DNA of 64,000 bases from a virus. The notes under the pieces are model-generated. The model saw only the letters and a list, made by a program, of their open reading frames with translations. It was not told the DNA's origin and did not search any database. Both the position numbers and the translations under genes were made by a program. Of this stretch, positions 6,714 to 21,178 are shown piece by piece. The number at the start of each line of letters is the position of its first letter. Within the stretch, counting starts at the first letter, position 1. Where the stretch lies: the IMG/VR virus record IMGVR_UViG_3300032315_001657, positions 1-64,000 of that record, one strand, 5' to 3'.

Positions 6714-7070
6714 ATGAACGAAACAAACACAATTAAAATCGAACGTAAGGCCGACGGTACTGTTGGTCGTGTTAAAGAAGGTAAGCGTCGTGGGCGTCCG
6801 GCTGGTTCCGGTAACCCGACTCTTAAGCTGGTCTGTCAGGTCACGAGCAAATCTCGCGCCACCAACCAGAACTACCTTAACGCTAAAGCCGCTCGCTTGG
6901 GAGTTTCTGTTGATGAAATTATCAACAATTATGTTTCCAAGGAAGGCCTTAAGCAGCTGCAAAACGATCAGACGATTGCTACCGATCGTAAGGAGCAATT
7001 GATCCGAGTCAATGGCGGTACCCGTCAGCGTACTGAGCAGACTGTGGAGCTTAAAAAGGCTGCTAAGTAA
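6714..7070 (+). CDS. basic, putative DNA-binding early protein (AT-hook-like RRGRP)
   Basis: start moved to the ATG behind the SD; KRRGRPAG; codon usage (CGT, GGT, AAC, GCT) unlike the AT-rich neighbours. Confidence 0.65.
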   Translation: MNETNTIKIERKADGTVGRVKEGKRRGRPAGSGNPTLKLVCQVTSKSRATNQNYLNAKAARLGVSVDEIINNYVSKEGLKQLQNDQTIATDRKEQLIRVNGGTRQRTEQTVELKKAAK

Positions 7071-7077
7071 TCATAGA

Positions 7078-7111
7078 GCCGGTGCTAGGCTAAACCCCTG
7101 CACCGGTTTTT
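7078..7111 (+). terminator. rho-independent terminator
   Basis: GCCGGTGC...GCACCGGT followed by TTTT. Confidence 0.75.
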
Positions 7112-7140
7112 CTAATTTTAAAATAAATAATTTTCTAAAT

Positions 7141-7728
7141 ATGTCCGAAAAATTAAGTCGGAATACTGTATTAGTTCTCAATAAAAATTGGCAAGCTGTA
7201 GGGATTAAATCCCCAGCAGATACCTTTGCCATGCTTATGACTGATACAGCAACAGGTCTAGATATTAGAGGTACGGACTATATGGTACCACTTTGCTGGA
7301 ATGATTGGACGCAATTACCAATTAATGAAGAAGATGAGTTCGTACAAACAGTTAATTCTAAAATAAAAATTCCTAAAGTTATTATTTTAGCAAAGTTTGA
7401 TAGAGTACCAAAAAAACGACCTAGGTTTTCTCAAAAAAATGTTTGGATTAGAGATGGTTATACCTGTCAGTATACAGGGAAGAAGCTTAAACCCGGAGAG
7501 GGTAATATTGATCACATTGTTCCGAAATCTCGTGGAGGGATTACTGATTGGACAAATTGTGTACTAGCTTGTAAAAAAGTTAATGCTAAAAAAGCTGATG
7601 CTACACCTGAAGAGATAGGTCTTAGGTTGCTCAAAAAACCTGAACCTCCAAAAGAGCTTCCTATCTATCATTATATTACTAACAGACACAAGATAAAAGA
7701 GTGGGATATTTTTCTTGCAAAAAATTAA
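7141..7728 (+). CDS. HNH endonuclease (McrA-like)
   Basis: VLVLNKNW, RDGYTCQYTG, IDHIVPKSRGG..W.N.V..C..VN..K; start reassigned to ATG 7141. Confidence 0.85.
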   Translation: MSEKLSRNTVLVLNKNWQAVGIKSPADTFAMLMTDTATGLDIRGTDYMVPLCWNDWTQLPINEEDEFVQTVNSKIKIPKVIILAKFDRVPKKRPRFSQKNVWIRDGYTCQYTGKKLKPGEGNIDHIVPKSRGGITDWTNCVLACKKVNAKKADATPEEIGLRLLKKPEPPKELPIYHYITNRHKIKEWDIFLAKN

Positions 7729-7742
7729 TAAACTACCATAAT
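7715..7742 (+). promoter_or_regulatory. sigma70-like promoter of the tRNA array 1 leader
   Basis: TTGCAA-16 nt-CATAAT. Confidence 0.5.
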
Positions 7743-7759
7743 TAATAGTATATTCAAAA

Positions 7760-7834
7760 ATGAAGCATACAGATACACGCTTGAACATGGCTATTTCGGG
7801 TCTTTCCGGGACCTGGACACCATGTTCTATATAA
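7760..7834 (+). CDS. leader peptide of tRNA array 1 (MKHTDTRLNMAISGLSGTWTPCSI)
   Basis: 24-aa ORF whose TAA lies in attenuator segment 2; contains codons for every elongator amino acid of array 1. Confidence 0.7.
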   Translation: MKHTDTRLNMAISGLSGTWTPCSI

Positions 7835-7898
7835 GCGGGTATCATAATTTTTTAACTTGATAGACCCGCTGAACTCAATAAAATGAGCAGCGGGTTTT
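7772..7898 (+). promoter_or_regulatory. transcription attenuator (protector/antiterminator/terminator)
   Basis: seg1 GATACACGCTT 7772-82 : seg2 AAGCGGGTATC 7833-43; seg2 : seg3 GATAGACCCGCT 7859-70; seg3 ACCCGCTG : seg4 CAGCGGGT 7888-95 + TTT. Confidence 0.7.
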
Positions 7899-7994
7899 AA
7901 ATTCTAAAGGCCTTTTGGAAAGTGAGCCTGAATCACTGAAACAACCACCGTGAATCCGTGGGTACAGAAATGTAGAGGTGTAGGTTCATAAAAA

Positions 7995-8065
7995 GCGGAT
8001 GTGATGTAATGGTAGCCTGGAACCTTGCCAAGGTTTTCGCGAGGGTTCGATTCCCTCTATCCGCT
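7995..8065 (+). tRNA. tRNA-Gly(GCC)
   Basis: cloverleaf; loop TTGCCAA; GGTTCGATTCC T arm. Confidence 0.9.
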
Positions 8066-8075
8066 CATTATTTTC

Positions 8076-8146
8076 GCCTGGTTAGTTTAATGGTAAAACG
8101 GTTGATTTGTAATCATCTGACGTCAGTTCGATTCTGTCACTGGGCT
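8076..8146 (+). tRNA. tRNA-Thr(TGT)
   Basis: loop TTTGTAA; acceptor GCCTGGT/ACTGGGC. Confidence 0.85.
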
Positions 8147-8155
8147 CTTTTTTAT

Positions 8156-8230
8156 GCACCAGAAGCTAAACGGCTAGGCATTGGTCTGCAAAACCTTTAT
8201 TAGTCAGTTCGACTCTGACCTGGTGCTCCA
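8156..8230 (+). tRNA. tRNA-Cys(GCA)
   Basis: loop CTGCAAA; U73 and encoded CCA. Confidence 0.88.
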
Positions 8231-8233
8231 TTT

Positions 8234-8307
8234 CCCTTCTTAGTATAGTAGCATTACAATCGGTTGATAACCGATAGAACAAGGGGCAGTACCTTGAGGA
8301 GGGACCA
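8234..8307 (+). tRNA. tRNA-Ile(GAT), non-canonical D/T loops
   Basis: ATCGG-TTGATAA-CCGAT; T arm CAAGG-GGCAGTA-CCTTG; ACCA end. Confidence 0.8.
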
Positions 8308-8314
8308 ATTTAAA

Positions 8315-8388
8315 CGGGATGTGGCTCAATTTGGTAGAGCATCTGCTTTGGGAGCAGAGGGTTGCAGGTTCAAATCCTGTCATCCCGA
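8315..8388 (+). tRNA. tRNA-Pro(TGG)
   Basis: TCTGC-TTTGGGA-GCAGA; C1:G72, A73. Confidence 0.92.
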
Positions 8389-8398
8389 TACTTTAAAT

Positions 8399-8474
8399 GT
8401 TGCTCGTGGTGTAGCGGTCTAGCATTACTCACTGTGACTGAGTCGGGGCGGGTTCGAACCCCGTCGAGCAACCC
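8399..8474 (+). tRNA. tRNA-His(GTG)
   Basis: ACTCA-CTGTGAC-TGAGT; G-1:C73 pair. Confidence 0.9.
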
Positions 8475-8479
8475 TTTTT

Positions 8480-8567
8480 GGGCTAATCTTGTCAATGGAG
8501 CCGACATTCCACTTTGTAAGAGGTGGTTGAGATTGGCCCTGGAGCGTCGCGGGTAAACTTGCTCCAT
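8480..8567 (+). ncRNA. unassigned structured RNA inside the tRNA array
   Basis: 11-bp stem 8480-90/8529-39 enclosing two hairpins (one GTAA tetraloop), then a TGGAGC/GCTCCA hairpin. Confidence 0.45.
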
Positions 8568-8574
8568 AACTTTC

Positions 8575-8645
8575 GGGGAATTAGTTAAGTGGTATAACTC
8601 CTGATTTGCATTCAGGTGTCACCAGTTCGACTCTGGTATTCTCCA
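8575..8645 (+). tRNA. tRNA-Ala(TGC)
   Basis: CCTGA-TTTGCAT-TCAGG; G3:U70 identity pair. Confidence 0.92.
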
Positions 8646-8653
8646 AACTTTTA

Positions 8654-8735
8654 GCTCAATTGGCGTAATTGGCAGCCGCGCTAGACTTAGGATCTAGTTT
8701 CGTAAGAAGTGTGGGTTCGAGTCCCTCATTGAGCA
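8654..8735 (+). tRNA. tRNA-Leu(TAG)
   Basis: CTAGA-CTTAGGA-TCTAG; variable arm; A73. Confidence 0.9.
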
Positions 8736-8737
8736 TT

Positions 8738-8824
8738 GGAAGTGTGGCTGAGCGGTCTATAGCAGAAGTTTACTAAACTTCCGAGGTTTAATAGCCTCCG
8801 TGGGTTCGAATCCTACCACTTCCG
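8738..8824 (+). tRNA. tRNA-Ser(ACT)
   Basis: GAAGT-TTACTAA-ACTTC; long variable arm GAGGTTTAATAGCCTC; G73. Confidence 0.85.
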
Positions 8825-8842
8825 TTTTTAGAAAAATTTTAT

Positions 8843-8933
8843 GGGCAGATGGCTGAGCTGGTCTAAGGCGTCCGACTTGAAATCGGAAGTGGTTTTATCA
8901 CCACCGTGGGTTCGAATCCTACTCTGCCCGCCA
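8843..8933 (+). tRNA. tRNA-Ser(TGA)
   Basis: TCCGA-CTTGAAA-TCGGA; long variable arm; GCCA end. Confidence 0.92.
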
Positions 8934-8941
8934 TCTTTAAT

Positions 8942-9014
8942 TGCAGGGTCGACAAGTGGTTAAGTCAGTAGGCTCACAACCTACCATGCATGGGTTCAAA
9001 TCCCATCCCTGCTA
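8942..9014 (+). tRNA. initiator (fMet)-type tRNA body with CAC anticodon
   Basis: U1xU72 mismatch, G2:C71, C3:G70, A73, A11:U24, loop CTCACAA, TTCAAAT T loop. Confidence 0.75.
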
Positions 9015-9023
9015 TTTTTTAAT

Positions 9024-9097
9024 ACGTATATAGTGTAATGGTAGCACAATTCTCTCCAAAAGAATTTGTCAGGGTTCAAGTCCTTGTATACGTGCCA
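9024..9097 (+). tRNA. tRNA-Trp(CCA)
   Basis: ATTCT-CTCCAAA-AGAAT; GCCA end. Confidence 0.9.
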
Positions 9098-9102
9098 TTT
9101 TC

Positions 9103-9173
9103 GCCGCAGTAACATAAAAGTAATGTGTTAGTCTTCCAAACTAAAGAACTCGGGGCAGTACCGTGCTGCGGCA
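9103..9173 (+). tRNA. tRNA-Gly(TCC), non-canonical D/T loops
   Basis: TTAGT-CTTCCAA-ACTAA; T loop GGCAGTA; no D-loop GG. Confidence 0.75.
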
Positions 9174-9182
9174 TATTTTTAA

Positions 9183-9259
9183 GGAGTTGTAGCTCAGTTG
9201 GTTAGAGCATCTGACTGTCACTTAGAAGGTCGCGGGTTCGAGCCCCGTCAGCTCCGCCA
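9183..9259 (+). tRNA. tRNA-Asp(GTC)
   Basis: loop CTGTCAC; GCCA end. Confidence 0.93.
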
Positions 9260-9264
9260 TTTTT

Positions 9265-9339
9265 AGGACTGTAGCTCAGCGGAATTAGAGCATCTGAATA
9301 CGGATCAGAAGGTCAAAGGTTCAAATCCTTTCAGTCCTA
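9265..9339 (+). tRNA. tRNA-Arg(ACG)
   Basis: TCTGA-ATACGGA-TCAGA. Confidence 0.88.
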
Positions 9340-9376
9340 TACTTGTTTTTTATAGTTCACTAGCTATAATAATGGT

Positions 9377-10024
9377 ATGAACTCACAAGAACAGATAAAA
9401 GATTATTTTGTCAAATTATCCGAAACTTTAAGCAAACATTTCGGATCTCATACTAATAAAGAGTTACCGTTTCAAAAATTAGAACACGAATGGTTAAATT
9501 ATTTTTATAACTCTACTACTTTTAGACACATACATCTTGAGTACTATAAAACTGATAAAATTTGTGCTCTGCATTTAACAGTGATGCCTACACCATCTTT
9601 TGATTACCCTATTCTTGGTTTTGATATGATTGCTCTTGGAGATAAAATTACTGGGCTATTTTTTGATATAACACCAACAATTACACAATGTGTAAATTTA
9701 TCTCAAAATTTAATTGATTTAAATAAAGATATAAAATCAGTAAAAAGACCGCTGCCTGAATGGGCTGATATTTTTAGTAATAACTTTGTATGTGTATCTC
9801 CTGATGTAGATGAACTTCCTGTTATATTTGATAATGTTGTTTCTTGTATAACTAAATATATATCTCACTCAAAATCATTAGTAACTAAAAACATTGAAAT
9901 ACAAAACAAATATTGTCAAGGGCAAAAGAAAAATCAAAAGACATTTAAAGCTTTAATAGCCGAAGTTGGTAAAGAAAATGCTCAATTGTTCTTTGATGAT
10001 TATCTTTTTCCAGAAATAAAATAA
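9377..10024 (+). CDS. ferredoxin-dependent bilin reductase (PcyA/PcyX-like)
   Basis: FRHIHLE, LH...P...D.PILGFD, D.TP, RPLPEWADIFS, QNKYC..QKKN.KT. Confidence 0.8.
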   Translation: MNSQEQIKDYFVKLSETLSKHFGSHTNKELPFQKLEHEWLNYFYNSTTFRHIHLEYYKTDKICALHLTVMPTPSFDYPILGFDMIALGDKITGLFFDITPTITQCVNLSQNLIDLNKDIKSVKRPLPEWADIFSNNFVCVSPDVDELPVIFDNVVSCITKYISHSKSLVTKNIEIQNKYCQGQKKNQKTFKALIAEVGKENAQLFFDDYLFPEIK

Positions 10025-10037
10025 CCAAGCACATTAC

Positions 10038-10934
10038 ATGCTTAAAAAAATTAAATTAACATGTAATTGGTGTGATGATCAGTCTCTTTATGAGCGTTTT
10101 AAACGGGTTTATATTAGTAAGTTTAATGAAGATTCTGAATTTGAATTTACTAATTCAAATGAATATAATTTTTTAGTAATTATAAATTACTCTAGTTATG
10201 AAATAAATTTTCCTAAAGAAAGTACGTTGGGTATAATTTTAGAGCCAACCTGGAGACCCGAATTTGTTGAGTCGAAATGTTTAAAAGATCTGTGTCAACA
10301 TATTTTGTTTCATAAGCTACAAGAGGACTCTCAATTCATACAAATTTGTGGTTTGCTACCCTTTCATTTAGACTATAATGAAGGAGAAGATCTAGATTAT
10401 TATATCAATAGCTCTTTTTCAAACAGCAAAAACAAATTATGTAGTATCATAGTATCCCATTACGATGAAAATACTGCTCATAGCTATTTTAAACAATCGA
10501 AAGAATGTCTGTATTCTCAAAGAATGAATCTTGTTAGAAATATTTTGCAAACTGATTTAGATATTGATATCTACGGTAATTATTGGGAATATTCATCTAT
10601 TAAAGATCCAAGAATTAAGGGTAGTTTGTATAATAAAAAAGATGGTTTATTAAATTACAAATATTCAATCGCTATAGAGAACTGTATAGAAGAGGGATAC
10701 TTCACCGAAAAACTTACTGATTGTATTTTAACAGATACTATACCTATTTATTACGGTTGCCCGAACATTGAAAAATATTTTTCAGGTATACCGGTTCTAT
10801 CTAATTTAAATGATACAGATCTCATAAAAAAAGTAATCAATAGTAATACCTTTAAACCAATAAGAGATAAAAAAATATTAGCTACAAAATACAATCTGTA
10901 TAGTGCTATTATAAACTATTTTAAAAAAATATAA
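10038..10934 (+). CDS. glycosyltransferase family 10 (fucosyltransferase-like)
   Basis: YKYSIAIEN...GYFTEKLTDC...PIYYGCPNI. Confidence 0.8.
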   Translation: MLKKIKLTCNWCDDQSLYERFKRVYISKFNEDSEFEFTNSNEYNFLVIINYSSYEINFPKESTLGIILEPTWRPEFVESKCLKDLCQHILFHKLQEDSQFIQICGLLPFHLDYNEGEDLDYYINSSFSNSKNKLCSIIVSHYDENTAHSYFKQSKECLYSQRMNLVRNILQTDLDIDIYGNYWEYSSIKDPRIKGSLYNKKDGLLNYKYSIAIENCIEEGYFTEKLTDCILTDTIPIYYGCPNIEKYFSGIPVLSNLNDTDLIKKVINSNTFKPIRDKKILATKYNLYSAIINYFKKI

Positions 10935-10976
10935 AATTTGATAAATTAGTTATTTTTTGATATATATTAGAATAAT

Positions 10977-11945
10977 ATGTTTGTAAAACAGGCTTTAGAA
11001 AATGGTAGTAATTTGTACCCACTCTTTATTGATCCTGAACTTACATCGGGTACTGGTATAATGAACCCTTCGATCTTTGTTGATAAAGATCGCTTATTAC
11101 TAAATATTAGACATATAAATTATACCTTATTTCATTCAGAAAAAAAGGTAATAACTCACCCTTGGGGCCCAGTGCATTATGTACATCCGGAAAATGATAT
11201 GCATTTAACTACTGTTAACTATCTAGGGGTATTAAATGATGACTATACCTGGAAATATTATTCTCGGGTAGACACTTCCCTATTAGATAAAGAACCTATC
11301 TGGGAATTTATAGGTTTAGAAGACGGAAGAGTTGTCCGCTGGAACGATAAATTGTATTTAACAGGTGTTAGAAGAGACACTACAACTAACGGCCAGGGAC
11401 GAATGGAGTTATCAGAAATAGTAGAAGAAAATCAGACCTTTAAAGAAGTTTCTCGCAAAAGAATACCGGCTCCAGGAGATGATGGCTCGTATTGTGAAAA
11501 AAATTGGATGCCGGTGCTAGATAGACCCTTCGAGTATGTTAAGTGGTGTAACCCTACTCAAGTAGTTAGGGCCGGGTTAAATGATAATCCAACTATTGAA
11601 GTACATTTAGGGGAATATCAGTATCAAAATTGGGATTTTCGTGGTAGTTCTCAAATTGTGCCTTACAAAGATTATTATATTTGTATTGTACATACTTGTT
11701 ATCTTTATAAAAGTGCAACCGGGAGAAGGGATGCTAAATACCGGCATTTGTTTATAGTGTGGGACAAAAACTGGAATGTTATAAAGTATGGAGAACCCTT
11801 TTCTTTTTTAAACGGAGATATCGAATTTTGCTGCGGTATGTGTATTTGGAAGGATAAATTTTTAATTACTTTTGGTTTTCAAGACAATTCTTCATTTTTA
11901 TTAGAATGTCCAAAAGATTTTATAGAAGAGTTTTTATCGATATGA
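10977..11945 (+). CDS. beta-propeller glycoside hydrolase/phosphorylase-like protein
   Basis: NPSI, GLEDGRV, EKNWMP, RGSSQ, IEFC..G motifs. Confidence 0.6.
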   Translation: MFVKQALENGSNLYPLFIDPELTSGTGIMNPSIFVDKDRLLLNIRHINYTLFHSEKKVITHPWGPVHYVHPENDMHLTTVNYLGVLNDDYTWKYYSRVDTSLLDKEPIWEFIGLEDGRVVRWNDKLYLTGVRRDTTTNGQGRMELSEIVEENQTFKEVSRKRIPAPGDDGSYCEKNWMPVLDRPFEYVKWCNPTQVVRAGLNDNPTIEVHLGEYQYQNWDFRGSSQIVPYKDYYICIVHTCYLYKSATGRRDAKYRHLFIVWDKNWNVIKYGEPFSFLNGDIEFCCGMCIWKDKFLITFGFQDNSSFLLECPKDFIEEFLSI

Positions 11946-14890
11946 ATGAAGAAATTAGAAATATTTTAATGGGTAATTCTTTTTTAGAAAAGGAATACGT
12001 TTTTCCCTCTTTACCTGTTAATAAAAAATTTACTATTATAATACCCTATAGAGATAATTCTGAACAAAAACGTAAACAGCAATTAAAAATTCTAATACCC
12101 CATTTAGAGAACAAGCTAAAAAGTAAAAATGCTAACTTTAATATTATTGTTATAGAACAAAATAACTATAAAGAATTTAATAGGGGAGCTCTATTAAATG
12201 TTGGTGCTGATTTAGCACATAAATCAAATTCGTCTTATATAATTTTGCATGATGTAGATATACTACCTGATGATGATTTAATTGAATATTATTTAACAGA
12301 ACCTAAGACTGATGAAGTATGGCATATAGGTAAACAAATAACAAAGTACAAATATAATACTTTTTTTGGAGCCGCAAATAGTTTTTCTTTAAAAACCTTT
12401 AAAAAAATTAACGGTTACCCTAACAGTTTTTGGGGCTGGGGAGGAGAGGATGATTGTTTATTAATAAGATTTACTAATCTTAAGCATGCAAAAATTATTA
12501 GACCAAATAAGGGTAAGTATAAGGAACTACAAGTTGAGGTAATTCGACAAGACCCTTTAAGAGAAGAATTAAAAACAAAAAAAATTATAAATGACAAAAA
12601 AAATTGGACTAATGATGGTTTCAATCAAATAAGTTACGAAATTTTAAATACTAAAAATTTAAATTCCAATACTCAAAAACTTACAGTTAATTTATTATTA
12701 GATAAATTTAAAATTGACCCTCCAAAAGAGCAGGATATTTTTACAGAATTTGCATACAACACAGAAGATGCTGAATTAAACTTTAAATTAGGGTTACATT
12801 ATCATGGTATGAATCAGACTGCTTCAGCATTTAGTCATTATTATCGCTGTGCAGAAAGAACAACAGATGAGACATTGAGATATGAGTGTTTATTACGGTG
12901 TTATATGTGTTTTATGAGTCAGACAAATAGGGACTTTACAGCACTTCATTGCTTAAAACAAGCAGTTTGTTTATTGCCCGAGAGGCCTGAAGCTTATTTC
13001 TTAATAGCTAAACATTACGAAGATCATAAAGAATATTACGATTGTTATACATACTGTAACATAGCATTAAATCTATGTAATTTTAATCTCCCTAGTTTAA
13101 AAACTTGGGTCAATTACCCAGGCAAGTACGGTTTACTTTTTCAAAAAGCTATCTCGGGGTGGTGGTGGGATAAAATAGATGAAACATATGATATTTTAAC
13201 TGGGTTATTAACAGATTACCCGGATTTACCAGAAGAGTATAAAATCATAATAAAAAATAATTTAAAAAACTTTTATAAAGAGGCAAAATATAGATACACA
13301 TTACCCGAAGAAATTGTACAAACAAAAAATGTTATTGACTGTTTTAGTTTCTTTTCAGGATACGGAAAAGAAATGCTTGAGCTTAGATACAACATATTAA
13401 AAGATCATGTAGATTATTTTGTACTATGCGAGCTTAATACAACTCATACTGGCACATTAATAAAGCTAGAGGCAGCTAATTTAATAGAGCAGCTCGGCTT
13501 ACCTAAAGAAAAATTTATTATTATAAATTTAAATATTCCTGAAGAAGAAAACTTAGAGATACAGGAAATAGACCGGTTGAACTGTATGTGCGGTAATCAT
13601 GAAAATAAAGATTCTTTATACAGTCGAGTACGTGAAAGATTACAGAAAGATGCTATACAGCAAATTTATGATGTTTTTAATAATGATACAGTTTTTATAC
13701 ATAGTGATTTAGACGAAATTATTAACCCTAAATATCTTAAATGGTTTGCCGACCAAGCAAGAAGAACACCTGACAACATTATAAAGGTACCTCTTGTTTA
13801 TTTACAAGGAAGAGCTGATTTAAGAACATATTTTAAGGACTCTAATACCCCTGCTCCTTGGGATGATAATCTTTTTCTATGTCTCAAATCTCATTTACAA
13901 AATGCAAGTCCGACCCAAATAAGATCAAATAAATTTACCCCCTATAGTAATGTATACATTACACAAAATAATGAAATTGTTCGAGACGCTGGGTGGCATT
14001 TTTCATGGATGGGAAATTCTGATATTAAAAAAATAAAACAAAAATCGTTTATACATTATACTGATAAATTTGACTTTGTAGCGGGGGGTAGCTACAACAA
14101 TACTGAGCTTAATAATATTCTTAATGTAGAAGATTTAGAAAATAAAATACCTCCAAGCGGAGAAAAGGATAAAATTTTACAAAAATATAATGTTAATTTA
14201 TTACCTAATGAAATTTTTAAACTTGACAGAGTAAAGAAGTTTTTATTACCAAATTGTAAAGAAGTTAATTTTTTAGAAAATATACCAGATGTATTGCAAA
14301 ATATATATGGGTTTTGTAGTGTTAAAAAAGCTACAGTATTAATAGACTTAATAACAAAAAATAAATTACAAACGATTGTTGAAATAGGGGTGTTAGAAGG
14401 AAGCTCTCTTATGCCTCAGGCATTAGCCGTTAAGCAGGCTGGTTCAGGTAAAGTATATGGTATAGATCCTTGGTCTCAAGAAGAGTCTTTACAGTATACA
14501 AAAGATGAAAATCATAAAAATTATTGGGGCACTATTAATCATGATGTTTTTTATAACAACTTTTTAAATCACTTACAGAATTATAATGTTGAGGGGGTTG
14601 TTGAAGTTCTTAAGACTACTAGTAAAGAAGCATCTGAAAAATTTTTACCTAATACTATAGATTTGTTACATGTTGATGGTAATCATTCTGAAGAAAAAAG
14701 CTTTGAGGATGTTTGTTTATATTTACCTCTTGTAAAAAAAGGTGGTTTTATAGTATTTGACGATTTACATTGGGTAGATGGTGGTAAGAATACTACTCAT
14801 AAAGCTGCAAAATATCTACAACAACATTGTGCTGAAATAGAACAAATAACAGATGAGCTTGGAAATTTCTTTGTTATTTTTCAAAAGTAA
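11942..14890 (+). CDS. multidomain GT7 + TPR-like + GT17 + class I SAM methyltransferase
   Basis: IPYR, FNRG, HDVD, NGYPNSFWGWGGEDD (GT7); helical PERPEAY repeats; SDLDEI, GWHFSWMG (GT17); EIGV..G.S, LHVDGNH (Methyltransf_24); ATGA overlap at 11942. Confidence 0.8.
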   Translation: MNEEIRNILMGNSFLEKEYVFPSLPVNKKFTIIIPYRDNSEQKRKQQLKILIPHLENKLKSKNANFNIIVIEQNNYKEFNRGALLNVGADLAHKSNSSYIILHDVDILPDDDLIEYYLTEPKTDEVWHIGKQITKYKYNTFFGAANSFSLKTFKKINGYPNSFWGWGGEDDCLLIRFTNLKHAKIIRPNKGKYKELQVEVIRQDPLREELKTKKIINDKKNWTNDGFNQISYEILNTKNLNSNTQKLTVNLLLDKFKIDPPKEQDIFTEFAYNTEDAELNFKLGLHYHGMNQTASAFSHYYRCAERTTDETLRYECLLRCYMCFMSQTNRDFTALHCLKQAVCLLPERPEAYFLIAKHYEDHKEYYDCYTYCNIALNLCNFNLPSLKTWVNYPGKYGLLFQKAISGWWWDKIDETYDILTGLLTDYPDLPEEYKIIIKNNLKNFYKEAKYRYTLPEEIVQTKNVIDCFSFFSGYGKEMLELRYNILKDHVDYFVLCELNTTHTGTLIKLEAANLIEQLGLPKEKFIIINLNIPEEENLEIQEIDRLNCMCGNHENKDSLYSRVRERLQKDAIQQIYDVFNNDTVFIHSDLDEIINPKYLKWFADQARRTPDNIIKVPLVYLQGRADLRTYFKDSNTPAPWDDNLFLCLKSHLQNASPTQIRSNKFTPYSNVYITQNNEIVRDAGWHFSWMGNSDIKKIKQKSFIHYTDKFDFVAGGSYNNTELNNILNVEDLENKIPPSGEKDKILQKYNVNLLPNEIFKLDRVKKFLLPNCKEVNFLENIPDVLQNIYGFCSVKKATVLIDLITKNKLQTIVEIGVLEGSSLMPQALAVKQAGSGKVYGIDPWSQEESLQYTKDENHKNYWGTINHDVFYNNFLNHLQNYNVEGVVEVLKTTSKEASEKFLPNTIDLLHVDGNHSEEKSFEDVCLYLPLVKKGGFIVFDDLHWVDGGKNTTHKAAKYLQQHCAEIEQITDELGNFFVIFQK

Positions 14891-14905
14891 TATATACTAC
14901 CTAAT

Positions 14906-15172
14906 ATGCAGGAAATTGTTAAAGAGGTAGCAGGCATCATAATGACTTTATGTTTTATGTTTTGCTATATTCCACAGATTATTAAAATATACAAAAACAA
15001 ATCATCGGAAGGTGTCTCTCTAATGTTAATTTTAATGTGTATTGGAGGGTATGTTTCTGGAATGGTGTACTTATTTCTTGGAACTTTCGGACTTTGGTGG
15101 TTTATGAATTATTGTGTTGGGCTCATTATGTGCTCAATTCTTGTGTACGCTTGGTTTAAGTATAAGAAATAA
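14906..15172 (+). CDS. PQ-loop/SemiSWEET-like small membrane transporter
   Basis: three hydrophobic helices; YIPQIIKIYKNKSSEGVS. Confidence 0.75.
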   Translation: MQEIVKEVAGIIMTLCFMFCYIPQIIKIYKNKSSEGVSLMLILMCIGGYVSGMVYLFLGTFGLWWFMNYCVGLIMCSILVYAWFKYKK

Positions 15173-15173
15173 T

Positions 15174-15248
15174 GCGCGCGTAGCTTAGCGGTAGAGCAGG
15201 TCCTTTACACGGACAAGGTCGGGAGTTCAATCCTCTCCGCGCGTACCA
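15174..15248 (+). tRNA. tRNA-Val(TAC)
   Basis: loop TTTACAC; ACCA end. Confidence 0.92.
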
Positions 15249-15263
15249 TTCTTAAATAATGCT

Positions 15264-15626
15264 ATGAAAAGAGTAGTGACGATAGATTTTGACGAAACCC
15301 TTGCAACAGAAAAAAATATGGGTTGGGGTAAGTCTTTGGTTCCGTATCAAACTATTTTAGATTTAATAAACAAGGAACATAAACAAGGGTCTGAGATTCA
15401 TATTGTTTCTTTTAGATCTGAAAAAGAAAGACCAGAAGTTGAGCGTTTTGTTAGAATGTACAATCTACCTATTAAATCTATTGTTTGCACTAATCTACAA
15501 AGCAAAACGCCTTATCTTCTTAAGCTCAGTTCAAACCTTCATGTTGACGATATGAAGTTTGCTTTAGATGATGCTCAAGAGGCGGGCATAGAAACTCTTC
15601 ATTTTAAAGAAGGTAAATTTATTTAA
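15264..15626 (+). CDS. HAD-superfamily phosphatase-like protein
   Basis: IDFDETL motif I; K and HVDD motif IV. Confidence 0.7.
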   Translation: MKRVVTIDFDETLATEKNMGWGKSLVPYQTILDLINKEHKQGSEIHIVSFRSEKERPEVERFVRMYNLPIKSIVCTNLQSKTPYLLKLSSNLHVDDMKFALDDAQEAGIETLHFKEGKFI

Positions 15627-15675
15627 ATTTTTTTCTTGCAGTTCAGACTGAACTCCGTATAATGGTGAGTGCAAT

Positions 15676-16746
15676 ATGAACGCAACATTAACTAAAGCCT
15701 ACAACAAACAGGCAAACATCGTCCGGGAGAGCTATTCGCATTTTCGGAAACAACCGGTCCGTCTTTCGAATATTCGTCGGGATGGAAAACTATTCACAGT
15801 CAATGATGTGGAAGTCACATCCAGGGCTCTTAATGATCTGGCAAATATCTTCTCGATTAAAGCGAGTTTGGTGGACCAGATTGAAAATGACAAAGAACAA
15901 TGGCAGCCACTTCAGCATGCCTTGACTAACATCAAAAAAGATCGCACAGTTACAGCAATTGTGAATGAAGGTTCAACTTCTCGTCCTTTCATTACAAAAT
16001 TTGTTGATGCCTCAATTGAAGAAGCAACACCTCTAAACTTCGATAAGGGTATCGAACAAATCGGGGGGTATCTTGAAACAGCAGAAGGAGATCTTGAAAT
16101 TCGTAATTTTCACTTCAATTCTGATAGTTTGAGTCTTGAGCTCAACATACAAGATAAGTCTAACAACATTGACGTCTTTAAAGATGGTAATGATATCTGG
16201 AATCCGGGGTTCGGTATTAACTATGGAGAAAATCGCACCTCGATTGCTCCGTATTACCTCCGTCTAGTGTGTACTAACGGTATGACCGCGGCGCATGAAA
16301 TTCTTCAACGCTATTTTAACAATAAGCCTATGAAGCAAGAAACATTTAATAAGTTGATTAACAATGTTGTTGAAAGAGACATGCACGTCCTTTGTCAAGC
16401 AAATGGTAGCCGCTTAAAGAATGTTAATTGCTCCCTTCGGGAGTTCTTCGCAGCTCGTAGTATTTTGAGTGGTAAAAAAGAGCCACAAAAAGAGTACTTT
16501 GATGACACCGAGATTCAAGAGGCTTATAAGCCTTATAGTATTCGGTATAAGAACAAACGTTGGTTAGCATCTGCTAATAGCAATGTTAACGGTTACGATC
16601 TGTTCAACCGACTCACTCATGCTGCTAGTCACAAGGCGACCTTGCCTATGGCTACTAGAACAGCTTTGAATGCCTTAGCTTCAGAATTGTTCTTCAAAGG
16701 ACCAGACCTATCTTTTCAAGCTCCTAATCCGTTTAGTAGGAATTAA
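15676..16746 (+). CDS. DUF932-like hypothetical protein
   Basis: RLVCTNG motif; own TTGCAG-N17-TATAAT promoter. Confidence 0.55.
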   Translation: MNATLTKAYNKQANIVRESYSHFRKQPVRLSNIRRDGKLFTVNDVEVTSRALNDLANIFSIKASLVDQIENDKEQWQPLQHALTNIKKDRTVTAIVNEGSTSRPFITKFVDASIEEATPLNFDKGIEQIGGYLETAEGDLEIRNFHFNSDSLSLELNIQDKSNNIDVFKDGNDIWNPGFGINYGENRTSIAPYYLRLVCTNGMTAAHEILQRYFNNKPMKQETFNKLINNVVERDMHVLCQANGSRLKNVNCSLREFFAARSILSGKKEPQKEYFDDTEIQEAYKPYSIRYKNKRWLASANSNVNGYDLFNRLTHAASHKATLPMATRTALNALASELFFKGPDLSFQAPNPFSRN

Positions 16747-16764
16747 AAAATAGTAATATTAAAC

Positions 16765-16797
16765 AAGCACCCCTCGGCGCGCCGAGGGGTTTGCTTT
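16765..16797 (+). terminator. rho-independent terminator
   Basis: CCCCTCGG-CGCG-CCGAGGGG then TTTGCTTT. Confidence 0.75.
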
Positions 16798-16836
16798 AAC
16801 TATTGATGTAAATATAATTTCCTTTATTATAAGCTT

Positions 16837-17226
16837 ATGAAAGTAGAGTATTTTAAAGATTGTGGAGGTTCTCCTGAGCATGAACGTAATGACTGTACTG
16901 TAAGAGCTTTAGCTATATCAACTGGAGGCTCGTATCATGAGGCTTATATGGTTCTTAATAGTTTTGGTCGAAGAGCTAATAAAGGGACTAACATCCGCAA
17001 ATTTTTTAAAAATAATTGTATAGTCTTAAACAAAGTGTTTACGAAGTTGAAATTTCGTAAACAAATTACACTTAATAAATTTGTACAAAAATACCCTACC
17101 GGTACATTTTACGTAAGAATAACTCGGCACGTTTTTGTAGTTAAAGATGGAGTAGCCATAGATATGACTAGACCTAAAACCTTTTGTCGTATTACCGATG
17201 CCTGGGAAGTTACCGAAATTGTTTAA
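16837..17226 (+). CDS. hypothetical protein (NDCxVRA motif)
   Basis: NDCTVRALAI...HVFVVKDG..D. Confidence 0.65.
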   Translation: MKVEYFKDCGGSPEHERNDCTVRALAISTGGSYHEAYMVLNSFGRRANKGTNIRKFFKNNCIVLNKVFTKLKFRKQITLNKFVQKYPTGTFYVRITRHVFVVKDGVAIDMTRPKTFCRITDAWEVTEIV

Positions 17227-17234
17227 ATATTAAT

Positions 17235-17513
17235 ATGCAATTTGATAGATTAGTTGAAGAACTACTAACAGAGATGCCTTATATAGAAATTGGAGATCAA
17301 ATTATTGATTTAGAAGTTGAGCTATATAAGGAAAGACCAGAAGAATTTATTGACAAATTAAAAAGTATCTTACAGGGTAATAGGGTAACAGGTAAATACA
17401 ACTCCTCCATACAATTAACAACGCCGGAAGAAAAACAAGAGTTTCTCAAAAAAATAAAATTAAATTACATGTTAAAAGGATTTATACCTGGAGATCTTAT
17501 CGATAGTTTATAA
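17235..17513 (+). CDS. hypothetical late protein
   Basis: start moved to MQFDRLVEELLTE behind TAAATA 17224-29. Confidence 0.6.
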   Translation: MQFDRLVEELLTEMPYIEIGDQIIDLEVELYKERPEEFIDKLKSILQGNRVTGKYNSSIQLTTPEEKQEFLKKIKLNYMLKGFIPGDLIDSL

Positions 17514-17524
17514 AATAGTGCATT

Positions 17525-18016
17525 ATGGGCCCAACCTCGATTGCACCTGATGAAATTTTAGATATTAAAAAACAATATTACTCTTGGAATCGTTTTCATG
17601 AACTTATTAATAGGGTTAAGAAACAAATTGATATTCCACCTAATTTAATTGTATCTATTGGTAAAGGGGGATCCATTCCCGGTGTTGTTTTAGCTGAAAT
17701 GTTTGAGTGTAATAATATAAATTTAGGTTTAAAATCCTATAAGGGACACTCTCGGGGTAACATTCATGAGTATCAATCTATTGGCTGTTTTAATGGGTTT
17801 AGAGATGCTAATATTCTTATTGTTGATGATCTTGCCGATTCAGGTGAAACTTTTCTTTATGCGGTTAAAAAGTTTAAAGGTAATGGTTGTGAGAATATAA
17901 GAACAGCCTCAGTATTTTATAAGCCTTGTTCAAGGTTTAAGCCTGACTATTTTGCAGAAGAAGTGGATAGCAAGATCTGGATCGTGCTGCCTTGGGAGAC
18001 TATGGAAGTTCAGTAA
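17525..18016 (+). CDS. type I phosphoribosyltransferase (purine PRT-like)
   Basis: PRPP loop ILIVDDLADSGET; C-terminal WIVLPWE. Confidence 0.85.
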   Translation: MGPTSIAPDEILDIKKQYYSWNRFHELINRVKKQIDIPPNLIVSIGKGGSIPGVVLAEMFECNNINLGLKSYKGHSRGNIHEYQSIGCFNGFRDANILIVDDLADSGETFLYAVKKFKGNGCENIRTASVFYKPCSRFKPDYFAEEVDSKIWIVLPWETMEVQ

Positions 18017-18416
18017 TAAACTTCTTATATAAATCCCAATACGATTTAAAAACAGAAGTTAATTTCTCCGGCTTAACCTTTTTATAGTTAATCCATTTAT
18101 AGTCTATATGCTCCCAGGATAGAGTGGGCATAAAACTATCATTAACCACCATAAAAAATGAGTAAACAGGCTGTTTTTCTCCTTCTTTAGTAATCTTTAA
18201 TTTACCCACTAAATTACCCTCAGGCATTAGTCCAATCTCTTCTATACACTCTCTCTGAGCAGTTTCTAGAGGTGAATATTCATCTTCCTCCCTGTGACCT
18301 CCGGGAAATGTATATTTACCGTTTTCTTTTTGTAGTAGAAGTACCTCTTTTTGTGGGGTAACAAAAACTATACCTGCACCGATGTATTTTATTTTAATAA
18401 ATTCTGCAAAGCTCAT
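18000..18416 (-). CDS. Nudix hydrolase
   Basis: PGGHREEDE..LETAQRECIEEIG Nudix box. Confidence 0.85.
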   Translation of the reverse strand: MSFAEFIKIKYIGAGIVFVTPQKEVLLLQKENGKYTFPGGHREEDEYSPLETAQRECIEEIGLMPEGNLVGKLKITKEGEKQPVYSFFMVVNDSFMPTLSWEHIDYKWINYKKVKPEKLTSVFKSYWDLYKKFITELP

Positions 18417-18453
18417 GGTTGATGTTTAATATAAATAATTTATAATACAACTC

Positions 18454-18678
18454 ATGGAAAATATAGCAGTTTATTTACAAAAAGGGGAATTTTCAGGTAG
18501 AGAACATATTGATCGAGTACTCAAAAGGCTTAAAGGCAAAATGGAGTCAGAGGGTATTTTAGATACCGTCCGCTCCAAAAAGGCCTTTGAGAATGAAACT
18601 CAAAAAAGACAACGTAAAGCTAAGAAGCTAGCAAAACAACGTAAGCTTCAAAAGCTTAAGCGGCAGCACCAGTCTTAG
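18454..18678 (+). CDS. rpsU: ribosomal protein bS21 homolog
   Basis: E.IDRVLKRLK.K...EGIL...R....FE.....R.RK pattern; basic, 74 aa. Confidence 0.75.
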   Translation: MENIAVYLQKGEFSGREHIDRVLKRLKGKMESEGILDTVRSKKAFENETQKRQRKAKKLAKQRKLQKLKRQHQS

Positions 18679-18859
18679 CAGCTTTGCGGGAGTTCTTCTC
18701 TTCTTGAATGGCTTTACGTTCGTTTTTGACATATTTACCAATCTCTTGAAGGGCTTTACGAGCACGAGACCCTGCAGCATTGTTCCCTCCGTAAAACTTT
18801 TCAGCTTCTACGGAAAAAGTTTCAACGATTTGTTTTAGTGTGTCTGTAGTATTAGGCAT
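18656..18859 (-). CDS. histone H1-like (Hc1 family) protein
   Basis: EAEKF..GNNAAGSRARKAL.EI......RK.IQ..KN. Confidence 0.7.
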   Translation of the reverse strand: MPNTTDTLKQIVETFSVEAEKFYGGNNAAGSRARKALQEIGKYVKNERKAIQEEKNSRKAAKTGAAA

Positions 18860-18912
18860 AATATCAATAGTTATTTGCATTTGTATGCTTTTTCAACTAA
18901 TTAATTTTACCT

Positions 18913-19668
18913 ATGAATAAAAAAAGTTTAAATTTGGATATGTCAACTAGTGGCTATACGAATTTAGCAGGTATAGCTACTCTTTATAATGAATTTTTTT
19001 CTCGGCATGATTATAGATGGTGGTATGAGGTACACCCTGGAGATATTGTTGTGGATGTTGGTGGTTGTATTGGTATGTTTACCTGTTTAGCTTTAGATAG
19101 CGGTGCAAGTAAAGTTTTTACAGTAGAACCTAATCCATCCCTCGCAAAAACTATTCTCAAAAATGCATCAATACACATTTTTAATAAAAAAGACTCACCT
19201 GTAACTATTATTAATAAAGCTATTGGTACTGACAGTACTTATTTTAAACACATATATGGTAATAAATATATGAACTCAAATGATATTGGTGCTGAATTAA
19301 CTGAAGAAGAATTTAATGCTTTAGAGCTAATATCCTTTAAAGAATTTATAAAGCAATACGACATTAAGCATATAGATTATCTTAAGATAGATTGTGAAGG
19401 TGGAGAGTTTGATATTTTAACTGCTGAAAACCTTGATTTTATAAAAAATAATGTAAAGCATATAGCTGTAGAGTTTCATATAGGGGCTTTTGAAGATGGC
19501 CCAGAAAGATATAATAAATTTAAAGATACTTTTTTATCTCAATTTGATAAAAGTAAAATTAAGTTTTTAAACTCTGAAGATTATGAAAAAGCTTTTAATA
19601 TAGACTGGACAAAACGACAAGAGGGATGGAGAACAAGTGTCTTTATGATATACATATGTAATTTTTAA
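18913..19668 (+). CDS. FkbM-family methyltransferase
   Basis: VVDVGGCIG, VEPNP, YLKIDCEGGE. Confidence 0.85.
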   Translation: MNKKSLNLDMSTSGYTNLAGIATLYNEFFSRHDYRWWYEVHPGDIVVDVGGCIGMFTCLALDSGASKVFTVEPNPSLAKTILKNASIHIFNKKDSPVTIINKAIGTDSTYFKHIYGNKYMNSNDIGAELTEEEFNALELISFKEFIKQYDIKHIDYLKIDCEGGEFDILTAENLDFIKNNVKHIAVEFHIGAFEDGPERYNKFKDTFLSQFDKSKIKFLNSEDYEKAFNIDWTKRQEGWRTSVFMIYICNF

Positions 19669-19734
19669 AAAATTACTAAAGAAATTAAACTTTATATTTG
19701 CAATACCTTATTAATACAATAAATTTATAGTGTT

Positions 19735-19848
19735 ATGAAATACATCCTACTCGCAGTTTTGGTAGTCTCTGCTGTTATGACTACTGCTTGTGCCTCTAAA
19801 AAAGAATGCACACCATGTAATAAAACTGTCGTCACCACGACTAAATAA
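19735..19848 (+). CDS. small lipoprotein (not in ORF track)
   Basis: MKYILLAVLVVSAVMTTA-C signal with lipobox-like Cys. Confidence 0.55.
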   Translation: MKYILLAVLVVSAVMTTACASKKECTPCNKTVVTTTK

Positions 19849-19853
19849 TAATA

Positions 19854-19907
19854 ATGTTTTATTACATACAAAACGAAAATAATAGAAAACCTCCCTTTAC
19901 GGGCTGA
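19854..19907 (+). CDS. leader peptide of tRNA array 2 (MFYYIQNENNRKPPFTG)
   Basis: 17-aa ORF 6 nt after TAAATA; first 12 codons cover all 8 anticodons of array 2; TGA lies in the antiterminator arm. Confidence 0.75.
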   Translation: MFYYIQNENNRKPPFTG

Positions 19908-19962
19908 GTTCTTGATTCGTTTTGTTTTGAGACCCGGCCCTAAAAAGCCGGGTTTTCTTTTT
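19868..19962 (+). promoter_or_regulatory. transcription attenuator (protector/antiterminator/terminator)
   Basis: ACAAAACGAA 19868-77 : TTCGTTTTGT 19916-25; GGGCTGAGTT 19901-10 : GACCCGGCCC 19931-40; terminator GAGACCCGGC/GCCGGGTTTT + CTTTTT. Confidence 0.75.
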
Positions 19963-19996
19963 GATCTTTGATAGCTTTAATCTTAAATAATTTTTC

Positions 19997-20078
19997 GGGT
20001 AGATCGCATAGTGGCAATTGCCGGAGACTGTAAATCTCCTCTCATTAGAGTTCGTAGGTTCGAGTCCTACTCTACCCA
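19997..20078 (+). tRNA. tRNA-Tyr(GTA)
   Basis: GGAGA-CTGTAAA-TCTCC; variable arm. Confidence 0.92.
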
Positions 20079-20091
20079 TATTTTAATAATT

Positions 20092-20162
20092 TGGCTCGTA
20101 GTGTAATGGTAACACCAGAGAATTTGGATCTCTTAATCATAGTTCGAGTCTATGCGAGCCAG
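20092..20162 (+). tRNA. tRNA-Gln(TTG)
   Basis: AGAGA-ATTTGGA-TCTCT; U1:A72, G73. Confidence 0.88.
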
Positions 20163-20205
20163 TTTTTAGTTGCACAATTTAAAAGATTCCGACATAATAA
20201 CAACA

Positions 20206-20379
20206 ATGAAGCTTTTAAAGCAGCCCTGGGAAAAATATGGCATAACCGAAATGGCATATTTAATGGCTTACACACAGGGATACCAAGGGGCATTTAGATC
20301 TCCTGACACCACCTATAAGCATGGTACAGTACTTAGAAAAATTTATAATAAAGGAAGAAGAGAGGCTAAACAATATTAA
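20206..20379 (+). CDS. hypothetical protein inserted in tRNA array 2
   Basis: MKLLKQPWEKYG...; TTGCAC...CATAAT promoter-like element upstream. Confidence 0.5.
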   Translation: MKLLKQPWEKYGITEMAYLMAYTQGYQGAFRSPDTTYKHGTVLRKIYNKGRREAKQY

Positions 20380-20586
20380 TGAAATTAGACTTAGACATTT
20401 TATATGCTTTTGTACTCTGCATACTCATAGCTGTTTTTACAATTCAATCGCGAGAAATTAAAATTTTGCAAACTGAAATTAAAGAGCTTAGAATTATTGT
20501 TGATCAAAAATTCTTACCTCCAGTAAATACAGATAAAAATTTGTAATATGGAAGACTTTGACGGTTTAGGAATTTAATGAATTCTA

Positions 20587-20677
20587 GCTGGGTTAGTGTA
20601 ATTGGAAGCACCGACAGTCTTATAAACTGTGTGCCCTAGATGAGGGCCGAGCATGGGTTCAATTCCCATACCCAGCA
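20587..20677 (+). tRNA. tRNA with TAT anticodon (Ile) and long variable arm
   Basis: ACAGT-CTTATAA-ACTGT; GCCCT..AGGGC extra arm; A73. Confidence 0.8.
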
Positions 20678-20705
20678 TATTTTTTTTTTGATCTTTTACA
20701 TTTTA

Positions 20706-20778
20706 GGGGTGGTAGCTCAATGGTTAGAGCAGTCGGCTCATAATCGATAGGTTGACGGTTCGAATCCGTCCCGCCCCA
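20706..20778 (+). tRNA. tRNA-CAT (elongator Met or Ile2)
   Basis: loop CTCATAA; paired G1:C72, so not an initiator. Confidence 0.88.
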
Positions 20779-20785
20779 CATTTTC

Positions 20786-20857
20786 GGAACGGTAACTCAA
20801 TGGTAGAGTAGCGCCCTTTTAAGGCGTAAGTTCTGGGTTCGAGCCCCAGTCGTTCCA
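20786..20857 (+). tRNA. tRNA-Lys(TTT)
   Basis: GCGCC-CTTTTAA-GGCGT. Confidence 0.9.
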
Positions 20858-20876
20858 TATTAAATAGCTCTTTAAT

Positions 20877-20951
20877 ACCTAGGTAGCACAGCGGTAGTGC
20901 AGCGCACTGTTAATGCGCGGGTCGTTGGTTCGAATCCAACCCTAGGTGCCA
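20877..20951 (+). tRNA. tRNA-Asn(GTT)
   Basis: GCGCA-CTGTTAA-TGCGC; GCCA end. Confidence 0.92.
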
Positions 20952-20959
20952 TTTTAAAA

Positions 20960-21031
20960 GTCTCGTTCGTTCAAGGGATAGGACCGAAAACTTCTAATTT
21001 TCTAATGTAGGTTCGAGTCCTACACGAGACA
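20960..21031 (+). tRNA. tRNA-Arg(TCT)
   Basis: GAAAA-CTTCTAA-TTTTC. Confidence 0.88.
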
Positions 21032-21052
21032 TACATTTAAATATACAATAAC

Positions 21053-21124
21053 GTCGCCATCGTCTAACGGTTAGGACACATGGTTTTCATCCATGTAATC
21101 GGGGTTCGATTCTCCGTGGCGATG
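21053..21124 (+). tRNA. tRNA-Glu(TTC)
   Basis: CATGG-TTTTCAT-CCATG; G73. Confidence 0.9.
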
Positions 21125-21178
21125 CTTTATATTTTTAGTTGCCGGTCTATTAATCCCCTCTATACTTTTCATAACTCT

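Follow-up and report, generated by a model that had tools for sequence, protein, structure and literature searches.

Ahead of a 15-gene tRNA array (array 1) in a T4-like phage, a short open reading frame (ORF) lies within a set of mutually exclusive RNA helices laid out like those of a leader-peptide attenuator. The window, i.e., the whole stretch of DNA that was analyzed, comprises 64,000 nucleotides (nt) of a 75-kb viral record in IMG/VR (IMGVR_UViG_3300032315_001657), and we assign it to a T4-like phage because it carries a family-B DNA polymerase, a UvsX-like recombinase, an SbcC-like nuclease, and helicases. From comparison of the window with its relatives, we consider the chances about even that positions 7738-7898 act as a ribosome-mediated (trp-type) transcription attenuator placed before a structured RNA, termed R1, and array 1. 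Such a device had been proposed from the window itself (the original prediction), and the observation behind it was confirmed, namely the ORF, the helices, and the overlap of the peptide with 12 amino acids served by the array. Sequence features, conservation, covariation, and codon bias were assessed directly, and from them we infer transcription start, translation, termination, and ribosome stalling. Coordinates of the features are collected in Table 1.

Leader ORF and alternative RNA helices ahead of tRNA array 1

Relatives of the leader were found by searching with the flanking proteins and a conserved 18-mer, which yielded ten sequences (L004-L007, L016, L019, L045, L049, L078, and L080) with the gene order HNH endonuclease (or another gene), leader, array. 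With the window they make up the 11 sequences compared below. The GenBank phage collection held no close relatives, only matches at the level of tRNAs. The ORF and its translation were present in the window as first described, and no array-bearing relative lacked the ORF. All ten keep it in frame, with the ATG at an identical column and the stop at a fixed position; L016 uses TAG there and L045 uses TGA, whereas TAA is found in most relatives. An alignment of homologs had been suggested as a check on the original prediction; in it, internal indels came only in multiples of three (-3 nt in the L005 group and +3 nt in L045), and compensatory changes appeared in the helices. The peptides diverge strongly, with recognizable likeness confined to their first four residues. 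Because the peptides differ greatly around fixed ends, what is conserved in the leader, judging from the alignment, is its frame, ends, and composition and not its protein sequence. In three relatives with a different upstream gene, conservation resumes ~20 nt before the leader ATG, which argues that the leader is an autonomous module. An antisense ORF at 7564-7845 was rejected as a candidate since its frame contains one or two stops in the relatives.

The minimum free energy fold of 7755-7905 consists of one long hairpin (7772-7843) and a second hairpin (7862-7897) followed by UUUU AAAUU. Its z-score was -6.66, and none of 200 shuffles folded as well. Most of the ORF falls within the long hairpin, whose 3' basal arm contains the stop codon. 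Folding thereby bore out the location of the stop within segment 2, and the proposed coordinates of the 1:2, inner, 2:3, and 3:4 helices proved correct. Six of seven distinct homologs had an ORF hairpin with a z-score between -2.45 and -5.83, the exception being L004. All three helices were present in all 11 sequences, with energies ranging from -17 to -33 kcal/mol for 1:2, from -8.5 to -19.2 kcal/mol for 2:3 (-13.5 kcal/mol in the window), and from -17.5 to -20.9 kcal/mol for 3:4. The change of stop codon from TAA to TGA in L045 is matched by a T-to-C change on the segment 1 arm, and an inner U-A pair of 3:4 covaries to C-G in three sequences.

Segment 2 is a near copy of the terminator 3' arm. 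Its AAGCGG and the UA that comes next do not vary among the 11 sequences, and the full AAGCGGGUA is shared by 10 of them, L004 having an insertion after AAGCGG. In the relatives, the GG of segment 2 is unpaired in helix 1:2 and paired in 2:3, and its conservation is accounted for, as far as the predicted pairings go, by 2:3 only. Extension of 2:3 past its 6-bp core exceeded that obtained with shuffled spacers in four relatives (P 0.012-0.035) and was not significant in the window. Taken at the level of these comparisons, both the attenuator architecture and the reading of the leader as translated are well supported.

In our assessment, the strongest comparative support for a switch is provided by leaders whose segments have changed together. 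L025 contains a 29-codon ORF with 16 amino-acid types in a long hairpin. The 7 nt directly after its stop codon (segment 2, GAGCGAC) are complementary to GUCGCUC, the 5' arm of a full terminator, which continues with GAGCGGC; a -10-like box and then R1 come after this terminator. A TATAAATA or CATAAATA box precedes the 36-codon ORFs of the mutually diverged L035 and L037, which use 18 and 17 kinds of amino acid, respectively. Their stop codons lie inside the segment that pairs with the terminator 5' arm, and R1 and 25 tRNAs follow. Across L025, L035, and L037, segments 2, 3, and 4 differ in sequence and keep identical pairing relations. That three sequence-unrelated leaders share the layout points to a rule that may hold for accessory tRNA arrays in general.

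The leader appears to have its own start site. At the position of the boxes that precede its ATG in the window, relatives have TTAAATAATA or TATAAATA. Exact copies of TTAAATAATA occur 0-11 nt before the gene starts at 27105, 31338, 33136, and 47926, and CTAAATAATA is found 3 nt before the ATG of the leader of a second tRNA array (array 2). Since matching promoter-like boxes precede other gene starts of the phage, the leader resembles an ordinary gene of this phage in its start, which is probably late and near-leaderless. No Shine-Dalgarno (SD) sequence was found before the leader ORF, and SD-like sequences precede only 5 of 36 genes of the phage. A TATAAT- or TAAATAAT-like box stands 0-11 nt ahead of many gene starts (e.g., 5687, 9377, 25337, 42947, and 49307), which suggests that leaderless or near-leaderless mRNAs are widespread in this phage.

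If the module works as an attenuator, transcription would start just upstream of the ATG at the late-type promoter box, giving a very short leader, and the 24-codon ORF would be translated. A fast ribosome reaching the stop codon would cover segment 2, so that 3:4 forms and transcription ends at about 7895-7898. A ribosome lagging in the first half of the ORF would hold segment 1 and free segment 2, which would pair with segment 3 before segment 4 is made, and RNA polymerase would continue into R1 and the tRNA genes. Because the ORF is largely written in array-1 codons and avoids array-2 codons, ribosome transit time would report the supply of array-1 tRNAs and thereby exert negative feedback on read-through into the array.

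Codon content of the leaders and competing explanations

By standard wobble, array 1 reads a set of 28 codons. We compared the leaders with phage gene windows of 22 codons and with shuffles in which each stem position stays a base pair, loops keep their base composition, and only open frames are retained. The peptide in the window contains all 12 of the amino acids G, T, C, I, P, H, A, L, S, W, D, and R that array 1 serves, an outcome reached by chance in 0.05% of the gene windows and 0.8% of the structure-preserving shuffles. The claim that the leader covers every elongator amino acid of the array holds for these 12 and fails for Val, which is missing from the peptide even though the array has a CAC (Val) tRNA at 8941-9015. 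Likewise, the AGY codon noted as missing for Ser(ACT) is absent from the leader in the window, and AGC or AGT is present in relatives.

In the relatives, 16-19 of 22-24 leader codons belong to the array-1 set, compared to 6-13 in the other two frames. Array-1 codons make up 32.4% of the codons in 20 phage genes, and among 7632 gene windows of 22 codons, 1.3% reach 13 array-1 codons, 0.03% reach 16, and none reaches 17. Structure-preserving shuffles of the leaders gave about 11 ± 2.2 such codons. The excess of array-1 over array-2 codons had P values of 0.0000-0.012 in L016, L045, L019, L004, L005, and L006, which are not independent because these six lineages are related, and a P value of 0.20 in the window. 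Nearly all codons of the relatives are decodable by array 1 except codon 2 (AAN) and an occasional Phe codon, and Arg is always encoded by CGN and never by AGA. The leader in the window has 5 of 24 codons outside the array-1 set (AAG, TTG, AAC, ATG, and ATA).

The array-2 leader ORF is shorter (17 codons) and sits in a hairpin ahead of a strong terminator. It is in frame in three relatives, with indels of 6 and 3 nt and the stop inside a conserved block. Ten of its first 11 codons are array-2-cognate, which 0.05% of gene windows match, and the other frames have 3-7. Its bias is the reverse of that in leader 1 (P 0.004-0.07), although this reciprocity is partly compositional because the codons read by array 1 are richer in G+C and those read by array 2 are A+U-rich. 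As had been argued, the two loci corroborate each other, through in-frame conservation of the second leader and its opposite codon bias. Matching of codons to the array thus appears supported in the relatives and by the reciprocal leader 2, and not by the window alone. Just before leader 2, at 19737-19846, there is a 36-codon ORF with a lipoprotein-like signal start (a hydrophobic stretch, then ...TTAC|AS) that is kept in two relatives.

Several observations weigh against an attenuator that senses array-1 tRNAs. In the window, 13 of 23 leader codons belong to the array-1 set, which is not significant relative to structure-preserving shuffles (P 0.20). Amino acids mostly occur once per leader, without the tandem runs of classical leaders, and only about codons 3-13 appear to be placed for sensing. 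Because the arrays divide the codons along G+C content and the second letter, composition accounts for part of the match. The leader peptide is poorly conserved. The counts of variable columns are 18 at the first, 13 at the second, and 18 at the third codon position, and the third-position excess expected as a coding signature is therefore absent. Frame +2 is likewise open in all homologs, which makes an open frame alone weak evidence. In L004, helices 1:2 and 2:3 are weak. When a ribosome footprint was simulated, equilibrium folding favored the terminator at every placement (p ≥ 0.85), so any antitermination would have to be kinetic; equilibrium folding would favor the terminator throughout in the trp leader as well, where antitermination is kinetic. 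As the original prediction acknowledged, the U tract is short, with only 3-4 U after the 3:4 stem, and for this reason a simple terminator scan made no call at the site. The terminators of leader 2 and L025 have full U tracts.

Some of these points fit a generic translation-coupled attenuator that senses overall ribosome availability or speed (late translation load or host attack) and not the tRNAs of the array, the codon bias being a by-product of a G+C-rich hairpin and a preference for small residues. The architecture and the conservation of the ORF fit this explanation equally, the codon match in the window lies within the null, and tandem regulatory codons are missing. The L025 leader, with its 16 amino-acid types, has no tRNA within 800 nt downstream of the module, which also counts against tRNA sensing. 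What makes a generic attenuator rather unlikely in our judgment is that array-1 enrichment and array-2 depletion are frame-specific and go beyond structure-preserving shuffles in six lineages, and that the bias of leader 2 is reciprocal. Moreover, the two 36-codon leaders lack Asp, and their 25-tRNA arrays lack tRNA-Asp according to ARAGORN.

Promoter-like boxes inside the terminator (7857-7884) and after it (7898-7903) could drive the array without any attenuator, a further point against the proposed control. Among relatives, the embedded promoter has an invariant -10 and a -35 of TTGATA, TTGCAA, or TTGCAT, while the second box follows a TAnnnT pattern (TAAATT, TAAAAT, TAAAGT, or TAACAT). Array 1 probably has its own promoter in or after the terminator, in which case the attenuator would modulate additional (late) expression by read-through from upstream and not the whole output of the array. 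The conservation of these boxes would also suit a reading of the ORF as a very small, independent late gene that has a terminator of its own, with the array transcribed from its own promoter at 7857-7903 and no regulatory coupling between them. T4-like phages have many small ORFs, and the start context of the leader resembles that of the other genes of the phage. Yet a poorly conserved peptide with frame, ends, and composition kept is not what such a gene predicts, and the post-stop bases complementary to the terminator 5' arm in three sequence-unrelated leaders would be needless for it. With the conserved GG of segment 2 unpaired in 1:2, an independent gene seems quite improbable to us.

A purely RNA-based role is, in our view, very unlikely. 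The hairpins would then serve tRNA-precursor processing or stability (e.g., as nuclease entry or protection sites) or protein binding, and the ORF would be untranslated and open merely through its G+C-rich stems. tRNA precursors do require extensive processing, the folds are strong and conserved, frame +2 is open in all homologs, and the ORF has no SD sequence. However, the ATG is fixed, the stop position is held through three different stop codons, and indels are confined to multiples of three, and leader 2 behaves likewise. The ORFs of L035 and L037 are both exactly 36 codons long despite very different sequences, and the codon bias is frame-specific. As for the original proposal that leader 1 is a sensor for array 1, it is partly supported, by the codon bias in six relatives, the helices, and the kept ORF, whereas the codon match of the window (P 0.20) and the short U tract do not bear it out.

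The R1 RNA and tRNA array 1

At the head of the array lies R1, which the comparisons well support as an undescribed structured RNA family tied to tRNA arrays in phages and bacteria. R1 is composed of a 5' strand-to-loop pseudoknot, a covarying hairpin A, a hairpin with the stem CC(A/G)C:G(U/C)GG, a variable GNRA-type hairpin, and a 3' AGGUG. On 31 distinct sequences, 98.4% of cells were paired, compared to 34-45% for slid controls, and compensatory change was seen in 7 of 12 pairs, including the pseudoknot between the 5' end and the hairpin loop. The segment is nearly invariant among leader-1 relatives and recurs in unrelated contigs. Among 141 sampled genomes of the class to which the Verrucomicrobiota metagenome-assembled genome G006 (which holds L107) belongs, a covariance model found R1 in 14. 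It stands directly upstream of a same-strand tRNA array at 13 of 16 loci. R1 heads the 25-tRNA arrays of L035 and L037, lies within arrays in L036 and L038, and is also present in L024, L025, L064, L097, L104, and L129-L145. In bacteria, it is preceded by a TACAAT-like box and followed by UGUUCUUUGUUGAAAUGG and an intrinsic terminator; the box in Verrucomicrobiota (TACAAT or TACATT) is at about the same distance from R1 as its parallel at 7898-7903 in the window. After R1, L025 continues with ~170 nt of non-coding sequence and a 206-amino-acid ORF (L025:1036-1656) that has a weak, sub-threshold match to PTH2 (peptidyl-tRNA hydrolase; E 0.0028).

Searching 7730-8000 against Rfam 15 at E ≤ 10 returned nothing besides a chance-level match to psRNA14 (E 2.3), and no T-box, riboswitch, or ribozyme. 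Over 7000-22000, only tRNAs reached the gathering score of their family. A literature search on the R1 motif sequence found nothing relevant. Readings of 7907-7982 as a hepatitis delta virus (HDV)-like theta ribozyme, a hammerhead, or a T-box were dropped upon inspection by eye, given the misfit in helix order or core and the silence of Rfam. Pairing of the 3' AGGUG with the 3' strand of hairpin A was rejected as well, since hairpin A covaries freely and AGGUG is fixed.

Table 1. Positions of the leader, its RNA segments, and neighboring features in the window.
Feature	Position	Strand	Basis or remark
HNH endonuclease gene	7012..7728	+	Pfam HNH, E 1.9e-8
Promoter-like boxes before leader ATG	7738..7754	+	ATAATTAATA (7738-7747), TATATT (7749-7754); pattern match only
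Leader ORF, 24 codons	7760..7834	+	Translation checked; kept in 10 relatives
Segment 1, 5' arm of basal 1:2 helix	7772..7782	+	Fold; pairs with 7833-7843
Inner and apical helices of ORF hairpin	7783..7827	+	7783-7790:7820-7827; 7795-7804:7808-7817
Segment 2	7833..7843	+	Overlaps stop codon; pairs with segment 1 or 3; core AGCGGGU
Sigma-70-like promoter inside terminator hairpin	7857..7884	+	TTGATA, 16 nt, TAAAAT; 10/12 matches; pattern only
Segment 3, terminator 5' arm and partner of segment 2 (antiterminator)	7859..7871	+	2:3 energies
Terminator-like hairpin (3:4), then UUUU	7862..7898	+	Core 7864-7871:7888-7895; 4-bp extension 7874-7877:7884-7887
Second -10-like box TAAATT over U tract	7898..7903	+	3 nt before R1 RNA
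Pseudoknotted RNA motif, model R1	7907..7982	+	85.7 bits
tRNA array 1, 15 tRNAs	7995..9340	+	15 found by Rfam, 12 by ARAGORN
Array-2 leader ORF, 17 codons	19854..19907		In-frame conservation

A 266-nt spacer separates the HNH gene from array 1, and an HNH gene also stands before the leader in the relatives L004-L007. The relatives keep the order of the tRNAs in array 1 and carry an essentially identical tRNA set. The tRNA at 8941-9015 has the anticodon CAC and is assigned to Val by ARAGORN, while L016, L045, L049, and L007 have tRNA-Met (CAT) at this place; it looks like a single anticodon change relative to Met-CAT. Between tRNA-His and tRNA-Ala, at 8479-8570, there is a conserved non-tRNA element that forms a hairpin with the invariant loop GUCGCGGGUAAAC and a stem covarying among relatives (GGAGC/GCUCC, GAGAC/GUCUC, or GAGCC/GGCUC). 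It may represent a tRNA that has degenerated or some other small RNA. The arrays of L049, L016, L080, and L006 contain insertions of 0.5-1 kb that separate individual tRNA genes (e.g., L049 6988-7890).

Relation to known systems and implications

The closest parallels are the leader attenuators of amino-acid operons, such as trpL, hisL, and pheL and the multivalent thrL and ilvL. Like trpL-type leaders, the phage module has a short ORF over segment 1 of three exclusive helices, a stop codon by or in segment 2, and a 3:4 hairpin followed by U. Helix energies are in a similar range, and the leader is, in six relatives, rich in codons tied to the regulated product. The phage module differs in that it would regulate tRNA genes and a structured RNA and not biosynthetic enzymes. 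Its leader samples about 12 amino acids, mostly once or a few times and without tandem runs, which would make total transit time the quantity read out. The phage mRNA is also probably near-leaderless, starting at a late-type promoter, and the module has a short U tract and promoter-like boxes in its terminator.

A component of the translation apparatus is known to be attenuated in this way. The pheM leader attenuates pheST, which encodes phenylalanyl-tRNA synthetase, via a run of Phe codons. It shares with the phage leader the ribosome-mediated control of such a component but responds to a single amino acid and governs a protein gene. T-box riboswitches work without an ORF, through direct contact with uncharged tRNA. 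Both T-boxes and the phage leader would sense specific tRNAs and throw a switch between terminator and antiterminator, although the phage leader would do so through an ORF and has no T-box match in Rfam.

Long accessory tRNA arrays (L-arrays) of bacteria offer another comparison, as an HNH gene is conserved just upstream of them (PMC8421152). The presence of this gene upstream in both hints at a common origin of the phage array and the bacterial L-arrays. Expression of cyanobacterial L-arrays was linked to translational stress (PMC8421152). Promoter repeats and the repressor TrcR are reported to control the cyanobacterial L-arrays and the Anabaena trn operon (PMC8421152; PMC10272220), which sets these arrays apart from the leader proposed here. 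The words "leader", "attenuat", and "terminator" occur nowhere in PMC8421152. R1 in turn resembles the theta (HDV-like) ribozymes, a family of small structured RNAs beside viral tRNA genes (PMC10879173), in its location next to such genes. It differs from them in that the HDV-like helix order, with the P1 3' strand directly after P3, could not be fitted to 7907-7982. Furthermore, R1 heads arrays behind a -10-like box and does not abut a tRNA end.

Our literature search found no published leader-peptide attenuation of tRNA genes. Trp-type control is textbook knowledge for amino-acid operons, and its application to tRNA genes is without a published case that we could find.

Phage tRNA genes are usually viewed as fixed supplements to codon usage or as reserves against the anticodon nucleases of the host, and to our knowledge little has been established about how their expression is controlled. 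In a broader and more doubtful interpretation, the two leader ORFs, their terminators, and R1 would together make up a single conserved module that controls accessory tRNA arrays. The leaders would be speedometers particular to each array, and R1, as a cis-acting RNA of a new class, would serve in sensing or processing and mark the 5' ends of array transcripts in several phage lineages and Verrucomicrobiota. R1 might bind a tRNA, the ribosome via two GGAGGUG-like boxes, or a small alarm molecule. R1 would in any event add an undescribed structured RNA family linked to tRNA arrays of phages and bacteria. If the attenuator reading is true, a leader written in the codons of the downstream tRNAs would sense tRNA supply directly and feed back on it, and trp-type attenuation would extend from amino-acid supply to decoding capacity.

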